DNA of 64,000 nt from Nannocystis sp. RBIL2. GTDB lineage: Bacteria > Myxococcota_A > Polyangia > Nannocystales > Nannocystaceae. Position numbers and translations under genes: made by a program. Shown here one piece after another: positions 3,118 through 44,487 of this stretch. The stretch is taken from the NCBI RefSeq assembly GCF_026626745.1, contig NZ_JAPNJW010000001.1, positions 972,311-1,036,310 on the forward strand. The letters run 5' to 3'. The first letter of the stretch is position 1. The number at the start of each line of letters is the position of its first letter. The notes below the pieces were generated by a model that saw only the letters and a program-made list of their open reading frames with translations, did not search any database and had not been told where the DNA came from.

Positions 3118-3960
3118 GTGCGTCGCGTCCGCTGCTGTGTTAGCGTCCGCCGCGTGACCGAGCCGGCCCCAGCCCCGCACATCGAGGCCCGCGGCCTCGG
3201 CGTGCAGTTCGCGGGCGGCGTGCAGGCCCTGAGCGGCCTCGACCTCGTCGTCCGCCGCGGCGAGCTGCTCGCCCTCATCGGCCCCTCGGGCTGCGGCAAG
3301 TCGACCTTCCTGCGCGTGGCAGCCGGCCTCGCGCCCGCCAGCGCGGGCACCATCACAGTCGCGGGCGAGGCCCCCGAGCGGGCCCGGGCGCGCCGCGCGG
3401 TCGCCTTCGTGTTTCAGGATCCGACCCTGCTCCCGTGGCGCAGCCTGCACGCCAACGTCCGCCTCCCGCTCGAGCTCGCGCGCGCCCCGAAAGCCGAGCA
3501 GACCACCGCCGCCGACGCCGCGCTCGCGCTCGTCGGCCTGTCGGAGTTCGCCGCCGCCCCGCCGACTGCGCTCTCGGGCGGCATGAAGATGCGGGCCTCC
3601 CTGGCCCGCGCCCTCGTCACCCGGCCCGAGCTGCTCCTGCTCGACGAGCCGTTCGGCGCCCTCGACGAGCTCACGCGCGAGCGGCTCAACGACGAGCTGC
3701 TGCGCCTGTGGGAGCGCGACCGCTTCACCGCCCTGGCCGTCACCCACAGCGTCGCCGAAGCGGTCCTGCTCGGCGACCGCGTCATCGTCCTCTCCGGCCG
3801 CCCCGGCCGCGTGGTCGCCGACATCCCGATCGCCCTGCCGCGCCCGCGCCGCGCCGCCCTGATCGGCAGCCCCGAGTTCGCGGCGATCGCCGCCGACGTC
3901 CGCGCCCACTTGCGCGCCGCCGCCCCGCCTGACCCTTCGGACCTGCCTGTTCGGACCTGA
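3118..3960 (+). CDS. ABC transporter ATP-binding protein, NitT/TauT (SsuB/TauB-like) family
   Basis: Walker A GPSGCGKST, ABC signature LSGGMKMRASLARAL, Walker B LLLLDEP. The probable true start is the in-frame GTG at 3154 (VTEPAPAP). Confidence 0.85.
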   Translation: MRRVRCCVSVRRVTEPAPAPHIEARGLGVQFAGGVQALSGLDLVVRRGELLALIGPSGCGKSTFLRVAAGLAPASAGTITVAGEAPERARARRAVAFVFQDPTLLPWRSLHANVRLPLELARAPKAEQTTAADAALALVGLSEFAAAPPTALSGGMKMRASLARALVTRPELLLLDEPFGALDELTRERLNDELLRLWERDRFTALAVTHSVAEAVLLGDRVIVLSGRPGRVVADIPIALPRPRRAALIGSPEFAAIAADVRAHLRAAAPPDPSDLPVRT

Positions 3961-9652: not shown

Positions 9653-11014
9653 TTGCTCGCCCTCGCCGCGCTGGTGTTCGTTCGCCTCTCGTCCGCCGCG
9701 CCGCCGGTCGCCGCGCCGCCGGTCGACCTGACCTGGCAGGCCCCGCGCGAGTGCCCCGACGGCGACGACGTCCTGCTCATGGTCGCCGGCCTGCTGCGTC
9801 AGCCGACCGGCGACGACGCGCCAGGTCGCCCCGGCGCCCGCGGGCTCATCACCCGCGCCGGCGCGGCATGGGAGCTGCGGCTCGTGCTGCGCGGGCGGGG
9901 CAGCGACTACCGTCGCACCGTCCGTGCCGAGAGCTGCCCGATCCTCGCGCGCGCCGCCGCCCTCCTGATCGCCATCCACCTCGACCCCCTGGCCGTCGCT
10001 CGCGGTTTGCCCGCGCCCGCCGTCGTCCCGCCCGCGCCCCCGGCCCTGCCGCCCGACCTGTCCCCGGGGACAGCCACGATCCCACCGCCGGGCCCCTCCG
10101 ATCTGTCCCCGCGGACATCTGCGACCTCCGCGTCCGGTACGGCCCCGCCCGCCGACCTGTCCTCGCGGACATCCACGACCTCCGCGTCCGGTACGGCCCC
10201 GCCCACCGACCTGTCCTCGCGGACATCCAGCGCTCCGCCGTCCGAGCTACCCGCGCGGCCGGTCCTGCCGCCTGACCCGCTCGCGTCCGACCCGTCTCGC
10301 GCCCCCTCGATCCCCGCCGCTCCCGACCTGTCCTTCCGGCCAGCCCCGCCTCCCTCCCCCGCAGGTCGGCTCGCCTCGCCCGCGCCCCCGCGACCGCCCG
10401 CCGGCCCGTCGCGCCCGCTCGCCCCCGAGGACATGTCCGAAGAGACAGCAGAGTTCACCGCCGCGCGAACGCCCCGGCCAGCCGCACCGCCGCGCGTGCT
10501 CGGCCACCTCCGCCTCGAAGGCGGCCTCGACGTCGGCGTCCTCCCTGGCGCCGGGGGCCTCGTCGGCCTGTTCGGCGGCGTCACCTTGCCGCGCCTGCGC
10601 CTCGAGGCCGGCCTCGTCGGCGCGCCTGGCCGGATCCTCCCCGGCCTCAGCGACCGCCCCGGCGGCCGCTTCGACCGCCTCGGCGGGGTCGTGCGGATCT
10701 GTCCGACCTGGCTCCCGCGCCCGGCGCTCGCCGTCCTGCTGTGCGCCGGCTTCGAGGTCGGCGCGCTCCACGGCGTCGCCCGCGACGTCAGCGTCCCGAG
10801 CCCGCGCTGGGCCCCGTGGGCCAGCTTCTTCCTCGGCCCCGCGCTGCGCTGGCGGGTCGCCGGCCCGCTCGGCCTGTGGCTGGCCGTCGAGGGCCTCGTG
10901 GCCGTCAACCGCCCGATCTTCACCGTCGGCGCTGAAGAGGTGTACCGCGGCGGCCGCGCGGGCCTGCGCACCACTTTCGGCCTCGACCTGCAATTCGGGC
11001 CACGGAATCGCTGA
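9653..11014 (+). CDS. Hypothetical secreted Pro/Ser-rich protein with 18-aa tandem repeats
   Basis: TTG start followed by a signal-peptide-like N-terminus; contains 54-bp tandem repeats (DLSPRTSATSASGTAPPA x ~3); the C-terminal part has non-junk composition. Confidence 0.5.
   Translation: MLALAALVFVRLSSAAPPVAAPPVDLTWQAPRECPDGDDVLLMVAGLLRQPTGDDAPGRPGARGLITRAGAAWELRLVLRGRGSDYRRTVRAESCPILARAAALLIAIHLDPLAVARGLPAPAVVPPAPPALPPDLSPGTATIPPPGPSDLSPRTSATSASGTAPPADLSSRTSTTSASGTAPPTDLSSRTSSAPPSELPARPVLPPDPLASDPSRAPSIPAAPDLSFRPAPPPSPAGRLASPAPPRPPAGPSRPLAPEDMSEETAEFTAARTPRPAAPPRVLGHLRLEGGLDVGVLPGAGGLVGLFGGVTLPRLRLEAGLVGAPGRILPGLSDRPGGRFDRLGGVVRICPTWLPRPALAVLLCAGFEVGALHGVARDVSVPSPRWAPWASFFLGPALRWRVAGPLGLWLAVEGLVAVNRPIFTVGAEEVYRGGRAGLRTTFGLDLQFGPRNR
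10100..10235 (+). repeat. 54-bp tandem coding repeats (x2.5), each beginning with a CTGTCCnnnnGGACAT element copy
   Basis: gatctgtccccgcggacatctgcgacctccgcgtccggtacggccccgcccgcc / gacctgtcctcgcggacatccacgacctccgcgtccggtacggccccgcccacc / gacctgtcctcgcggacatccagcgc...; further single copies at 10055 and 10325. Confidence 0.75.
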
Positions 11015-39789: not shown

Positions 39790-39870
39790 GCGCTCCGCCA
39801 TTGAAATAAAAGCCTGTATGGTATCTCTAATCTCGTTGCAAGCGCTGTAAAAGCACACATAATATCCCTT
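39790..39870 (+). promoter_or_regulatory. AT-rich promoter/operator region upstream of hipBA
   Basis: ccattgaaataaaagcctgtatggtatctctaatctcgttgcaagcgctgtaaaagcacacataatatccc is roughly 35% GC in a ~72% GC genome; contains TATC/ATATCC half-site-like motifs. Confidence 0.4.
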
Positions 39871-40164
39871 GTGCTGTTCACCGCCGAGGAGGTCGCCCAG
39901 GGCCTGGCCGGGCGCATGAAGGCGCTGCGACTGGCCCGCGACTGGAAGCGCGAGACGCTGGCCGAGCGAGCCGGCATCAGCGCCGGCACCGTCAAGCGGT
40001 TCGAGACGACCGGCCAGATCGCGCTCGACAACCTGCTCAAGCTGGCGCTCGCGCTCGGCTGCCTCGAGCAGTTCGAGGCGGTGTTCGCCCCGCCGCCGGC
40101 GCGCTCGCTGGCCGAGCTCGAGCAGCGCGGCCAGGCGCCCGCGCGTCAGCGAGGCCGGCGATGA
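39871..40164 (+). CDS. hipB: HTH XRE-family antitoxin HipB
   Basis: GTG start; HTH (LRLARDWKRETLAERAGISAGTVKRFE); overlaps hipA by ATGA. Confidence 0.7.
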   Translation: MLFTAEEVAQGLAGRMKALRLARDWKRETLAERAGISAGTVKRFETTGQIALDNLLKLALALGCLEQFEAVFAPPPARSLAELEQRGQAPARQRGRR

Positions 40165-41438
40165 ACCCTGCGACCCGCAAGCTCGAGGTCCGGCTCGTGC
40201 GCGCCGCCGACGAGCGCGAGGTCGTCGGCCACCTCCTGCTGCACGAGCGGTCGATCTACTTCGAGTACGCGCCGACCTGGCTGACTCGCGGTCCCTCGAT
40301 CTCGCCGCTCAAGCTGGCCCTTCAGCCAGGCATCTTCAAGGCTCCCGCCGCACGCCTGCACGGGGTGTTCGCCGACGCCTTACCCGACGGCTGGGGCCTC
40401 CTGCTGATGGACCGGCTGTTCCGCAAGCGCGGCCTCGTGCCCGATCAGCTCTCGCCGCTCGATCGCCTGGCGCACCTCGGCGCGCGCACCATGGGCGCCC
40501 TGACCTTTCACCCGTGCACCGACGCGGAGCCCGTCGAGGACCGATCGATCGCCCTCGACAAGCTGGCAGCCGCCGCCGAGGACGTCTACCGCGGTCACCC
40601 GTCGGAGCTGTTGCCGGTGCTGCAGCACGCCGGCGGCTCGCCAGGCGGCGCGCGCCCGAAGGTGCTGGTAGCAGTCCGCGGGGACAGCATGGTCTATGGG
40701 ACAGCCGTGCCGCCGCCGGATCACGAGCCGTGGCTGATCAAATTCTGGGCCGGCGACGAGCAGCGCGACGCCGGGGCGATCGAGCACGTCTACGCCCGCC
40801 TCGCGCGCCACGCCGGGCTCGAGGTGCCCGATACGCGGCTGTTCGTGGCCAGCAGCGGCCAGCGCTACTTCGGCGTGCGCCGGTTCGACCGCGACGAGGC
40901 CGGCGCGCGCACCCACGTCCACACCCTCGCCGGCCTGCTCGACGCCGACTTCCGCGAGCCGAACCTCGACTACGACATGCTGCTGCGCGTCACCATGCAC
41001 CTCACGCGCGCGCAGCCCGACGTGCGCCGGGCCTTCCGGCAGATGGTGTTCAACGTGCTCGCGCACAACCGCGACGACCACGGCAAGAACTTCTCCTTCC
41101 TCATGGACCGCGAGGGCGGCTGGCGATTGTCGCCCGCCTACGACCTCAACTTCGTCGCCGGTCCCGGCGGAGAGCACACGATGACGCTCGACGGCGAGGG
41201 CCGGCGCCCGACCTGGCAGCACATGCTGCGCCTGGCCCGTCGCGCCTCGATCGACGAGAAGACCGCGCGAGCGATCGTCGACGAGGTGCGGACCGCTCTC
41301 GCGCGCTGGCCTCGCGAGGCGCGGGCGGTCGATGTCGCCCCTGCCACCATCAGCGACATCGGCCGCCGGCTCGACGCAGTCACGGCCGACGCGGAGCTGC
41401 CCGGCAGCGGCGCCGCCCGGCGACCCCGGCGCCGCTGA
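40161..41438 (+). CDS. hipA: HipA-family Ser/Thr kinase toxin (type II TA)
   Basis: HipA N-terminal and C-terminal domains; catalytic region VLAHNRDDHGKNFSFL; 425 aa. Confidence 0.85.
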   Translation: MNPATRKLEVRLVRAADEREVVGHLLLHERSIYFEYAPTWLTRGPSISPLKLALQPGIFKAPAARLHGVFADALPDGWGLLLMDRLFRKRGLVPDQLSPLDRLAHLGARTMGALTFHPCTDAEPVEDRSIALDKLAAAAEDVYRGHPSELLPVLQHAGGSPGGARPKVLVAVRGDSMVYGTAVPPPDHEPWLIKFWAGDEQRDAGAIEHVYARLARHAGLEVPDTRLFVASSGQRYFGVRRFDRDEAGARTHVHTLAGLLDADFREPNLDYDMLLRVTMHLTRAQPDVRRAFRQMVFNVLAHNRDDHGKNFSFLMDREGGWRLSPAYDLNFVAGPGGEHTMTLDGEGRRPTWQHMLRLARRASIDEKTARAIVDEVRTALARWPREARAVDVAPATISDIGRRLDAVTADAELPGSGAARRPRRR

Positions 41439-41581
41439 ATTCGGCGCCCGCAAGCGCTCCCCGCCTCCGAGATGTCTCGAAGGACACCTTCTTGTCACCT
41501 GTCCTCCGGGACAGGCCCGCCAGCGCGCGGTTCCGGCAATCGTCCCCGCCCGCCGGGAGTCCGATACCGAGGGTCTCCACG

Positions 41582-41956
41582 ATGCGCCGCGGCGTCGCCG
41601 CGGCATACTCCCTCGACATGACCTCCTCCTCGCCCATGCCGTCGTCCGCCCTCGCCACCGCGCCGTGCTCGATCTGCCACGGTCGGGAGTTCTTCTTCCT
41701 CTCGCCATGGCGCAGCCTCGAGCACGGCGTCAACGGCTGGTACGCCCAGCCCGTGCAGACCTGCGCCCACGTCCCGGAGCGCGGCTTCCTCAGCCGGCCC
41801 TCGGAGTCGGACGTTCTGCGCGCGCCGATGGCACTGCGCGTGTGCGCCGGTTGTGGCGCCTCCATCCCCTACACCGACCCGGCCGCAGTCCGGGCGATGC
41901 TGGCGGCCGGTCAGCCGGGTGTCTCTCATGCGGGCGGCGAGCCTGGCCGGCGATGA
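41582..41956 (+). CDS. Hypothetical small Cys-rich (zinc-ribbon-like) protein
   Basis: High GC3 and native codon usage. CxxC pairs (CSICHG ... CAHV ... CAGCG). Located between hipA and HxlR; the start is uncertain (41582 or 41618). Confidence 0.4.
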   Translation: MRRGVAAAYSLDMTSSSPMPSSALATAPCSICHGREFFFLSPWRSLEHGVNGWYAQPVQTCAHVPERGFLSRPSESDVLRAPMALRVCAGCGASIPYTDPAAVRAMLAAGQPGVSHAGGEPGRR

Positions 41957-42019
41957 CAGCGCGCCTGTCGCCGTGAGCCGGGACGCTGGACCGGCTTCAT
42001 CCGGCTCGCGGCCTGGGTT

Positions 42020-42409
42020 ATGAAAGGGAACCGAGTCCGCGACATGCATCAGCAAGAGACCTGTGTGGCGGTGCGCGACGTCCTGAGCCGCGTCGGCGAC
42101 AAGTGGAGCGTCCTCGTGGTCAGCATGCTGAGCGACCGACCGCTGCGCTTCAACGAGCTGCGGCGGTCGATCGAGGGCATCTCGCAGCGCATGCTGACGC
42201 TGACGCTCCGCGGCCTCGAGCGCGACGGCCTGGTCACCCGCACCGTCACCCCTTCCGTCCCGCCGCGCGTCGACTACGAGCTGACCGAGCTCGGCCGCAC
42301 CCTGCTCGACCCGGTCCAAGCCCTCGCCGCCTGGGCCGGCGACCACCGCGGCGAGATCGCCCGCGCCCGCGAGCGCTTCGACCGCAAGGACCCGCCCCGG
42401 CAAGATTGA
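42020..42409 (+). CDS. HxlR family transcriptional regulator
   Basis: [27 protein letters not shown]...[15 protein letters not shown] signature. Confidence 0.8.
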
Positions 42410-42419
42410 CTTGATAGCG

Positions 42420-42492
42420 AGTGTCCAAATGGACATGTTTGAATCAGCATGTCCATCCGGACATTTCTGAAAGGACATGTCCCGATCCGCAG
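42420..42492. repeat. GGACATGTCC-family 14-bp phased array (4-5 units) downstream of HxlR
   Basis: CATG at 42434, 42448, (CATT 42462), 42476; ATGTCCatccGGACAT; AT-rich spacers. Confidence 0.85.
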
Positions 42493-42642: not shown

Positions 42643-44487
42643 TCAGCGCACCTCGGCCGCCACCCGCAGCACTCCCGGCTGCGGGTAGCTGATCGCCAGA
42701 TCGGCCAGCTCCAGCCCCCCGTCGCGCAGCGCTCGCGTGCCGTCGCGGAGCAGCGCCCGCACCTGGATCCCCGGCAGTCCCGCGGCGCCTGGAGCCAGCA
42801 GCGCGTCGAGCCGGGCCTCGACGTCGCCCATCTCGAGCAGCGCGGCGAAGCACGGCCACAGCGCCCCCGCGCGGGCGCACGACAGGCGCAGGCGGTCGAT
42901 CGTCCCGGCCAGCGCAAGGCGCCCGCGCCCCGCGTCCCAGTGCGGGCGCACGAACCCGCGCCCTGCGACCAGCACCTCGCCGGGGTCCTCGCCCTCCCTG
43001 CCGGTCAGCCCCAGCCGCAGCCCGGCGACAGTCAGGGCCCAGCCGTCACCTGTCCCCGGGGACAGCGACGGCGGCAGCCGGACCTCGATCTCCGCCAGGC
43101 CGAGCGTCGTCCACTCGCCGAGCGCCTCGTCGACCCGCTCGACCCACTGCGCCCGCCCCATCAAATCGCCGAGCAGCCCGTTGGCGGTCCACGCGTCGAG
43201 CAGCGCGTCGACAGTGTCGAGGCTCAGCTCGACCTCCGCGTCGGCAGTCGGCGCAACCGGCCGCAGCGGCGGCAGCTCGAGCCCGTGCCGCGCCGGCCCC
43301 GGGATGGCCGCCAGCCGCGTGCGCACCCGGCTCGCCTCCTGGCTGGTCTTCGGGTCAGGTTTATCTGGCCGTACGGACAGGTGGGCCGCGATCCCGCCCG
43401 ACTCGATGGCCACCGCGCAGAACGCCAGGGTCGCCCGCGAGCGCGGCTCGCCGACGATCAGCTCGGCGCGCTCGGGGATCAGCGGGATCGCGCTCGCCAC
43501 CGCCAGGGCCGCGGTCAGCTGCGTCTCGACCTCCTGCCGCGCGCGCCGGTCGATGTAGCCGTCAGCCAGCGCGTAGCCGGCCAGCGCCCCGAGCGGCGCC
43601 AGCGGCCCCGTCACGAGCGCCCCCAGCCCCGCCGCGCCGAGCGTCGCCCGCGTGCGCAGCGTCCCCGTGAACTCGACCGGCCCGAGCGAGGCCAGGCGCA
43701 CGCCCAGCTGGCGCGGCCCGGCCACCCGCACCTCGAGCGCGCCGGACACCGCGATCCGGTGCTCGCCGGCCAGCGCCACGCGGAACCACAGCGCGTCGCC
43801 CCGCAGCGTCACGCTCGCCTCCTCGAGCGTCGTCCCCGGCCCGAGCAGCCCGATCGACGGCGCCGCCGCCAGCAGCTTCTCACGCAGCGGCGGCAGCACC
43901 AGCCGATCGATCGCCCTCGCCGCCACCCGGACCCCCGCGCCGCAGCCCGGCGAGTCGTCGTAGCGGGCGCGGAACGGCCCGACCAGCGCCGCGTCGGTCG
44001 CCACCTCGGCGCCGCCCTGCCGCGGCAGCTCGACCTCGATCAGCCGCAGCCCCGGCGCGTCGCCCAGCGCGACCGAGAGTGTCCCATCCGACATGTTCTC
44101 ATAAACATGTCCCTCAGGACCGCTGCCACTCATCCCGTCGTCACGCCCAGCAGCCTCTGCGACTCGGGGCATGTCCGCGAGAGCATGTCCTCTCGAATCA
44201 TCGCGCGCCGCGAACATGTCCTTTTGCGCATGTCCTTCAGGACCGGCGCGGACCTCCCCGTCGACCCGCACCACCGCCCGCGCCGCCAGCTCCGGCGGGA
44301 CCCCGCGCCCCGACCAGCGCCCGTCCGCCGCCGGCGCGTGCGGGCTTGCGACCTCGACGCGGAAAGGCTCGGCGGCGGCCGCCTCGATCAGCGCCCCGCG
44401 CCCGGCGGCCAGCAGCGCACCCGCCAGCGCCAGGCCGGCCAGGCCGGCCATCGACGCGAGCCGCCACTTATCCTCCGCGAGCGCCAT
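42643..44487 (-). CDS. Hypothetical membrane-anchored protein downstream of the MlaFE-like transporter (possible MlaD/MCE analogue), carrying a 171-bp in-frame repeat-array insert
   Basis: N-terminal TM anchor MAGLAGLALAGALLAAG. Codons ~78-135 are encoded by GGACATGTCC array 44085-44255 (GHAQKDMF...GHVYENMSDG). An alternative start is ATG 44084 (MSDGTLSV). Confidence 0.5.
   Translation of the reverse strand: MALAEDKWRLASMAGLAGLALAGALLAAGRGALIEAAAAEPFRVEVASPHAPAADGRWSGRGVPPELAARAVVRVDGEVRAGPEGHAQKDMFAARDDSRGHALADMPRVAEAAGRDDGMSGSGPEGHVYENMSDGTLSVALGDAPGLRLIEVELPRQGGAEVATDAALVGPFRARYDDSPGCGAGVRVAARAIDRLVLPPLREKLLAAAPSIGLLGPGTTLEEASVTLRGDALWFRVALAGEHRIAVSGALEVRVAGPRQLGVRLASLGPVEFTGTLRTRATLGAAGLGALVTGPLAPLGALAGYALADGYIDRRARQEVETQLTAALAVASAIPLIPERAELIVGEPRSRATLAFCAVAIESGGIAAHLSVRPDKPDPKTSQEASRVRTRLAAIPGPARHGLELPPLRPVAPTADAEVELSLDTVDALLDAWTANGLLGDLMGRAQWVERVDEALGEWTTLGLAEIEVRLPPSLSPGTGDGWALTVAGLRLGLTGREGEDPGEVLVAGRGFVRPHWDAGRGRLALAGTIDRLRLSCARAGALWPCFAALLEMGDVEARLDALLAPGAAGLPGIQVRALLRDGTRALRDGGLELADLAISYPQPGVLRVAAEVR
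44085..44255. repeat. GGACATGTCC-family composite array (171 bp = 57 codons) in-frame within a CDS
   Basis: CATG at 44092, 44106, 44170, 44186, 44215, 44229; palindromes ATGTCCctcaGGACC and ATGTCCttcaGGACC. Confidence 0.8.

Follow-up and report, generated by a model that had tools for sequence, protein, structure and literature searches.

A probable accessory islet of separate units, carrying hipBA, a rare four-cysteine gene and hxlR, downstream of pntAB in Nannocystis

The DNA between the core pntAB genes and a conserved Mla-like operon of Nannocystis sp. RBIL2 is probably an accessory islet that occupies a variable slot and holds independent units, not one system. We analyzed it within a 64,000-nucleotide stretch of the genome (herein the window; contig NZ_JAPNJW010000001.1, positions 972,311 through 1,036,310; 71.6% GC overall), to which all positions refer unless another locus is named. 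Along the forward strand, the islet contains the toxin-antitoxin genes hipB and hipA, a small gene for a protein with four cysteines in a zinc-ribbon-like CxxC...CxxC arrangement, and hxlR, which encodes a winged-helix regulator; members of a palindromic repeat family with a strict 14-bp phase lie past hipA and past hxlR. A previous, sequence-only reading of positions 39790 through 42492 had described these genes as a compact, probably horizontally acquired hipBA module in which the small open reading frame (ORF) might be a third component. Its gene assignments largely stand; its view of their origin and unity does not.

Position and age of the islet

The window was compared with the equivalent loci of four other species (L001 through L004), namely N. 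pusilla, N. punicea, N. bainbridge and N. radixulma (L004), and with two metagenomic relatives, L090 and L104, which were found by a PntB scan and have PntB proteins of 92% and 81% identity, respectively. Behind pntAB, N. pusilla, N. punicea and N. radixulma have the complete set of four genes, and in N. bainbridge only the small ORF is missing from it. L090 and L104 conserve the flanks, retaining moaC-pntA-pntB, the gene for a 614-residue protein, mlaEF and the next gene, and have none of hipB, hipA, the small ORF or hxlR. In their place, L090 carries a 541-residue ORF with PD40 repeats and L104 a 433-residue VWA ORF. With such unrelated genes in it, the slot after pntB is variable, and the proposal of an accessory position directly behind core pntAB is borne out. 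The idea of one compact functional module is not, as N. bainbridge dispenses with the small ORF and keeps hipBA and hxlR.

The islet had also been taken for a probable horizontal acquisition, with the proviso that related genomes carrying pntAB followed directly by these genes at normal GC would contradict this. Four other Nannocystis species show just that arrangement. GC content at third codon positions (GC3) is 0.88 to 0.95 for the islet genes; codon usage of hipB, hipA and hxlR is mid-range for the window, and the small ORF ranks as the sixth least typical of 52 genes. No part of the islet is low in GC except the promoter, which is non-coding, and the repeat array. A recent horizontal import of the whole islet is therefore improbable: although GC content in the area is lowest at the promoter (39%) and the array (47%), the nearest kin of HipA outside Nannocystis are at most 52% identical and belong to other phyla and plasmids, and N. 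radixulma has a transposase fragment between pntB and hipB, the locus is present in four other species, its synonymous divergence equals or exceeds that of pntB, and its coding sequence is host-like, with low GC only in non-coding functional elements. Judged by these comparisons, the hipBA/zinc-ribbon/hxlR set is an old, fully ameliorated accessory islet specific to the sampled Nannocystis species.

Two further observations concern the history of the locus. The number of synonymous substitutions per site (dS) is 0.17 to 0.40 for hipA and 0.06 to 0.35 for hipB versus 0.03 to 0.18 for the adjacent pntB in the same species pairs, an excess that may come from stronger codon bias in pntB or from a history in which the islet differs. 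In N. radixulma, ∼1.1 kb of extra DNA separates the pntB terminator from the hipBA promoter and includes a fragment of an IS110/IS116/IS902-family transposase (L004:4780 through 5367; Pfam Transposase_20, 64.6 bits).

On the upstream side, pntA (36689 through 38305, + strand) and pntB (38324 through 39736, + strand) are followed by a terminator-like hairpin (AAGCCCGCC...GGCGGGCTT, then TTTGT; 39754 through 39790, + strand) that ends the pntAB unit. The predicted fold of 39740 through 39800 has an energy of −34.2 kcal/mol (z = −2.8), and the hairpin sequence is kept in N. pusilla, N. punicea and N. bainbridge. An Rfam scan of the whole window returned a single tRNA, with no known RNA in the hipBA-hxlR region.

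The hipBA operon and its promoter

By sequence, hipB and hipA make up a canonical type II toxin-antitoxin operon of two genes. As previously read, hipB (39871 through 40164, + strand; 97 residues) begins with GTG, and ATG stands in the same alignment column at three of the four orthologous loci; it overlaps hipA (40161 through 41438, + strand; 425 residues) by 4 nt, ATGA, at 40161 through 40164. The identification of the two products, with HipA as a full kinase, was upheld by Pfam: HipB, the presumptive helix-turn-helix (HTH; Xre/HTH_3) antitoxin and autorepressor, matches HTH_3 (34.3 bits, cut-off 23), and HipA, a predicted Ser/Thr kinase toxin of the HipA family, matches Couple_hipA (PF13657; 63.5 bits, cut-off 22.5) and HipA_C (PF07804; 175 bits, cut-off 30.5).

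The operon resembles E. coli K-12 hipBA in having an upstream HTH antitoxin gene that overlaps a gene for a kinase of ∼430 residues, and its HipA shares with the E. coli protein the HipA N-terminal (Couple_hipA) and HipA_C domains as well as the Ser of the Gly-rich loop, the catalytic Asp and the Mg-binding Asp. In a phmmer alignment to E. coli HipA (3tpd_A), GGSPGGARPK is placed against ISVAGAQEK, RDDHGKNFS against TDGHAKNFS and SPAYD against TPFYD; the autophosphorylated Ser150, the catalytic Asp309 and the Mg-binding Asp332 of E. coli HipA fall on GGSPGGARPK, NRDDHGKNFS and SPAYD, and all are conserved. The HipA family has been defined by its hipB-hipA gene organization, which the operon of the window fits (Gerdes et al. 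2021, PMC8262856). We also collected 76 non-Nannocystis hipBA loci from other phyla, for this comparison and for that of the small protein family below; in 75 of them, hipA is immediately preceded by a gene for a HipB homolog.

Both genes are under purifying selection, with ratios of nonsynonymous to synonymous substitution (dN/dS) of 0.15 to 0.24 for hipA and 0.12 to 0.32 for hipB. HipA is 95% identical to its ortholog in N. pusilla Na p29, 92% in N. punicea, 91% in N. bainbridge and 86% in N. radixulma; with one genome per GTDB species, the next-best match has 52% identity. Genes with 40 to 45% identity, annotated as HipA-family toxins with an HTH neighbor, occur on ∼940 plasmids. The E. coli HipB equivalog model (NCBIfam NF007271) has a cut-off of 79 bits and reaches 21.1 here, and the hipB product is accordingly classed, by position, as an HTH antitoxin of the HipB kind and not as an E. 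coli HipB equivalog. The NCBIfam YjjJ equivalog model lies far below its cut-off for the hipBA proteins. A reading as antiphage defense was set aside, as the PADLOC hits for HipA are only marginal (16.9 bits).

The operon is preceded by an AT-rich promoter region (39800 through 39870, + strand). A GC content of about 35% had been given for 39790 through 39870; the stretch is real, and its measured GC content is 43.2% over that span and 36.6% for 39800 through 39870, so that the lower figure holds for the inner 70 bp only. The lowest-GC 80-mer of the window starts at 39801 (39% GC). The promoter expected inside this stretch was found there, with a −35 element TTGCAA (39836 through 39841), a 16-bp spacer and a −10 element CATAAT (39858 through 39863); it is the sole σ70-like site in 39600 through 42700, where 0.0 are expected. 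Both elements are conserved without indels in all five genomes, the −10 element reading CATAAT, TATAAT or TATACT. In every genome compared, 7 nt separate the end of the −10 element from the hipB start codon, and there is no Shine-Dalgarno sequence; for these two reasons the hipB mRNA is probably leaderless.

A weak inverted repeat, AGCACA-N12-TGTGCT (39849 through 39878), covers the −10 element and the hipB start codon, and a direct repeat, TAAAAGC...ATA, recurs in the promoter region at a spacing of 41 bp. From its sequence, the inverted repeat may be a candidate HipB operator, or a coincidence. The hipB start codon is GTG in the window and N. pusilla and ATG in the other species, and a matching C/T difference on the other side of the inverted repeat keeps its arms complementary; as a single lineage event, this co-variation is weak evidence.

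The four-cysteine protein and hxlR

The small gene was previously read as a 124-residue CxxC ORF at 41582 through 41956. The gene and its end are confirmed; its start lies at 41618, giving a product of 112 residues (41618 through 41956, + strand). The ATG at 41618 is invariant in four genomes and the orthologs have 110 to 112 residues. Between species, 1-bp indels disrupt the frame upstream of 41618, and a start at 41582 was rejected on this ground. An ORF at 41472 through 41621, which overlaps the 41618 ATG by ATGA, was likewise rejected as coding, its third-position GC being just 0.55 to 0.62. Intact orthologs are present in three Nannocystis genomes and two metagenomic clusters, and dN/dS is 0.31 to 0.52, below 1 in all pairs.

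The protein belongs to a rare uncharacterized family. A profile search of 1.84 billion representative proteins returned only 11 family members of ∼105 residues, which share C17, C20, C76, C79 and a nearly invariant C-terminal Arg. In the family alignment (A3), the last residue is Arg in 12 of 13 members, often within ...YR, and the tails are otherwise variable; conservation of this terminal Arg hints at C-terminal recognition or processing. AlphaFold with the 13-sequence alignment gave a model with a predicted local distance difference test (pLDDT) score of 87.8, in which two β-hairpins bear the CxxC knuckles; with three close sequences only, the score was 45 and the model unusable. Two CxxC knuckles conserved across the family and carried on predicted β-hairpins are the marks of a zinc ribbon, and the closest known kind is the group of zinc-ribbon domains that includes the TFIIS C-terminal domain, the TFIIB ribbon, Trm112 and the NrdR N-terminal domain. 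Sequence searches of Pfam, NCBIfam, PADLOC, PHROGs and the PDB gave no match, and by Pfam and NCBIfam the protein resembles neither HipS nor the HipA N-terminal domain.

The suggestion that the small protein is a third HipBA component is contradicted by its distribution. N. bainbridge lacks the equivalent of 41438 through 41992 of the window, that is, the repeat copy past hipA together with the small gene, and has hipBA and hxlR intact. Most simply, this absence is a secondary deletion, given that N. radixulma, the most divergent of the five by dS, has the small gene. The proposed search for HipA homologs with neighboring CxxC small ORFs was carried out with the family profile and six-frame ORFs, and found no family member at any of the 76 non-Nannocystis hipBA loci. 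Neither HipA nor HxlR is encoded near the distant family members examined, and they have no common partner; their neighbors include a hemerythrin, a Tox-PAAR-like protein, DUF465, a glycosyltransferase and proteins without a Pfam match. The other option of the sequence-only reading was an independent small regulator; a regulatory role is conceivable, and independence is supported by the loss in N. bainbridge, the 76 hipBA loci and the unrelated contexts of the relatives. On these comparisons, the small protein is a stand-alone, dispensable product under purifying selection with no conserved genomic partner; our best guess is a zinc-dependent nucleic-acid- or protein-binding factor unrelated to HipBA.

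The assignment of hxlR (42020 through 42409, + strand; 129 residues) to the HxlR/DUF24-type winged-helix regulators is confirmed by Pfam HxlR (PF01638; 95.7 bits, cut-off 20.8, residues 25 through 110). Among the NCBIfam models, those for the redox regulators RrpB and RrpA come closest, each with a score under its cut-off. With its HxlR domain and an N-terminal Cys (residue 15, ETCVAV), the protein resembles the HxlR/DUF24 (MarR-type) thiol sensors HypR, YodB and Campylobacter RrpA and RrpB; it differs from them in having no divergent oxidoreductase target gene alongside and in scoring below the RrpA and RrpB cut-offs. All five genomes conserve about 45 bp upstream of the hxlR start; in one of them the small gene is deleted, and conservation even there suggests that hxlR has its own control region. 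HxlR is a regulator separate from hipBA.

Three other accounts of the small gene were weighed. It is scarcely credible that the ORF is a high-GC artefact or that an antisense ORF (41380 through 41865) is the real gene: long chance ORFs are expected in DNA of 72% GC, and the antisense ORF shares the wobble positions, leaving codon-position GC ambiguous over 41520 through 41700, but distant homologs of 23 to 46% identity retain the four cysteines and the length, dN/dS stays below 1 in every pair, the start codon is conserved and the AlphaFold model is confident. Also very unlikely is a tripartite HipBA variant in which the zinc-ribbon protein would modulate HipA or HipB as HipS does in HipBST. 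Toxin systems of the HipA family that include a third small protein, as HipBST of E. coli O127 and Legionella does, are what the sequence-only reading had in view, and the small gene lies 180 bp past hipA on the same strand in four of five genomes, under purifying selection. In HipBST, however, HipT lacks the N-terminal subdomain, which is supplied by HipS from a gene between hipB and hipT, whereas the HipA of the window is full length and the small gene is downstream, dispensable and codes for a zinc ribbon unrelated to HipS or the HipA N-terminal domain; neither a truncated kinase nor a HipS-like protein was found at the locus. The clean deletion in N. bainbridge leaves hipB, hipA and hxlR intact and under selection, the family is absent from the 76 other hipBA loci, its distant members occur in six independent contexts without HipA, and a hairpin element intervenes between hipA and the small gene. 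Somewhat less remote, while still unlikely, is a two-gene unit in which HxlR controls both the small gene and itself and the Cys-rich protein serves as a redox-responsive effector. HxlR-type regulators usually control a neighboring gene. The two genes here are on the same strand, 64 bp apart and adjacent in four genomes, and since the downstream gene is convergent there is no other adjacent candidate target. This arrangement is countered by the deletion of the small gene, which left hxlR and its 45-bp upstream region intact, and by distant relatives of the small protein that never have an HxlR neighbor. A stand-alone small gene beside a separately controlled hxlR remains the preferred reading.

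A 14-bp-phased palindromic repeat family

The repeats past hipA and hxlR belong to a family whose unit is a 10-bp perfect palindrome, GGACATGTCC, plus 4 nt, in a strict 14-bp phase. About a dozen GGACATGTCC arrays are spread across the window, for example, at 76 through 169, 4925 through 4990, 9308 through 9359, 13948 through 13999, 14222 through 14287, 18986 through 19051 and 55176 through 55241. The window has 27 matches to GGACATGTN8ACATGTCC with up to three mismatches, where 0.08 are expected; CATG-to-CATG distances of 14, 28, 42 and 56 bp are seen 33, 23, 18 and 7 times, and other distances 1 to 4 times. Adjacent units always pair, forming 8- to 10-bp stems with 4-nt loops, and the array folds have z scores of −3.3 to −8.6. 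Of nine intergenic arrays, seven start no more than 25 nt from a stop codon; four are flanked by convergent genes. The Nannocystis loci have 4 to 6 CATG pairs at 14 bp per 13 kb; L090 and L104 have none, and the remaining fetched loci have 11 over 1.5 Mb.

Of the two copies in the islet, the degenerate one noted earlier at 41468 through 41520, which starts 30 nt past the hipA stop codon, is real; within it, CCTGTCC-TCCG-GGACAGG (41498 through 41515) makes up a perfect 7-bp stem closed by a 4-nt loop. The copy is present in three of five genomes, the window, N. pusilla and N. punicea, of which N. punicea retains the ACATGTCC core, and is absent from N. radixulma; this hairpin probably marks the 3′ end of the hipBA transcript. 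The closing array between convergent hxlR (+ strand) and the gene at 42643 through 44487 (− strand) had been called perfect over 42420 through 42492. Its five units do keep an exact 14-bp phase, at 42421 through 42490; they are 67 to 100% alike, and three have the CATG core. It is predicted to fold on both strands (+ strand, −29.9 kcal/mol, z = −3.3; − strand, −33.1 kcal/mol, z = −4.1). An array follows hxlR in all five Nannocystis genomes, with 4 to 6 units and differing spacers and with the same core and phase.

Multi-copy palindromes that form hairpins and are mainly extragenic at gene 3′ ends are the hallmark of repetitive extragenic palindromic (REP)-like sequences, and from sequence the arrays are most likely REP-like elements at transcript 3′ ends. 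Like the REP elements and bacterial interspersed mosaic elements (BIMEs) of enterobacteria and pseudomonads, they are short, clustered extragenic palindromes that form hairpins and vary in copy number between relatives, and the arrays lie mostly past gene 3′ ends and between convergent genes. Unlike these, they have a 10-bp perfect palindrome in strict 14-bp phase in place of an imperfect palindrome of ∼35 bp, they are also found in frame within a coding gene, and the sample has them in Nannocystis loci only; they are not classical REP elements. A literature search for Nannocystis repeats and for the GGACATGTCC string returned nothing relevant, only papers on p53. We tentatively regard them, at slightly less than even confidence, as an undescribed REP-like family, restricted to Nannocystis in the sample, that marks or creates transcript 3′ ends, turns over fast, expands in frame and perhaps has its own enzyme.

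The coding gene in question is the convergent gene for the 614-residue protein (42643 through 44487, − strand), behind which lies an ABC/MlaE fusion gene (44468 through 46081). Three hairpin pairs at 44077 through 44240 are in frame inside it and are translated as PEGHxxKDM-like motifs. The ORF is open in all five genomes, with 614 residues in the window and N. pusilla and 573 in the other three, and the orthologs in L090 (567 residues) and L104 (562 residues) lack the repeat stretch altogether; the in-frame expansion adds 6 to 47 codons to this Mla-operon protein. Phased CATG arrays at 2895 through 2946 and 11668 through 11705 fall within long, crudely called ORFs with blurred codon-position GC, and the crude gene caller is unreliable around 2850 through 3050 and 11620 through 11700; these arrays may be intergenic with wrong gene calls, or further in-frame insertions. 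A second variant, with the non-palindromic core GACCTGTCC and a 14-bp period, occurs at 3953 through 3989, 10054 through 10216, 12274 through 12297 and 46085 through 46125, and at 10094 through 10244 it sits in a 54-bp tandem repeat of 2.8 copies. The degenerate copy past hipA is of the GACCTGTCC variant.

Beyond the gene anatomy, conservation and catalytic motifs of hipBA, which the comparisons show, the islet would work as follows. HipB would bind and neutralize HipA through its role as an HTH antitoxin and, at a putative operator, would repress the promoter, which lies in the one strongly AT-rich stretch. By analogy with characterized HipA kinases, HipA that is not bound by HipB would be toxic and would phosphorylate an aminoacyl-tRNA synthetase, stalling translation and triggering the stringent response and growth arrest, and would inactivate itself by autophosphorylation of the conserved P-loop Ser. 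The hairpin copy 30 nt past hipA would mark the 3′ end of the hipBA transcript; the 112-residue product would act apart from HipBA as a small zinc-dependent nucleic-acid- or protein-binding factor; HxlR would be a thiol- or electrophile-sensing regulator with its own conserved upstream region; and the closing array would be a REP-like element that forms or stabilizes the transcript 3′ ends of two convergent genes.

Several points weigh against parts of this account. The HipA of the window is only distantly related to E. coli HipA (49.5 bits), and its target may therefore differ from those of characterized HipAs. The promoter region has no E. coli-type HipB operator (TATCC-N8-GGATA), which, with the probably leaderless transcript, further separates the operon from E. 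coli hipBA, and a GTG start is unusual on a leaderless mRNA. Co-transcription of the small gene and hxlR across the 64-bp gap, or read-through from hipA, is possible. The arrays have no U-tract; canonical intrinsic termination is consequently not predicted, and their role in termination or RNA stability is for this reason one that we infer. There is also some chance, well short of even, that the arrays act at the level of DNA, either through cooperative binding of a dimeric protein, which might be nucleoid- or partition-like or a CATG factor sensitive to methylation, or as target or recognition sites of a mobile-element enzyme. Such a role would agree with the finding that the palindromic core and the phase are conserved and the spacers are not; copy number that varies by species and arrays in frame in a coding gene suggest active copying. 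The strong bias to positions within 25 nt of stop codons fits a transcript 3′-end role instead, as does the constant ability of adjacent units to form 8- to 10-bp stems with 4-nt loops. No gene for an associated enzyme was noticed in the window, where no systematic search for one was made. A REP-like role at transcript 3′ ends is the reading we prefer.

The locus is mostly ordinary, and its hipBA operon is one further member of a very large and well-known toxin-antitoxin family. The analysis is of use chiefly for annotation: the small gene is given a corrected start, the hipB mRNA is probably leaderless, and the islet appears to be an old feature at the level of the genus and not a fresh import. 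Two by-products reach further. One is a rare family of small four-cysteine proteins, with ∼11 clusters among 1.84 billion representatives and a confidently predicted fold. The other is the set of 14-bp-phased palindromic repeats at Nannocystis gene ends, and even within a coding gene, which could inform how transcripts end in the very GC-rich genomes of myxobacteria; if our reading of them is true, they would be a REP-like system of different architecture, perhaps with its own propagating enzyme.

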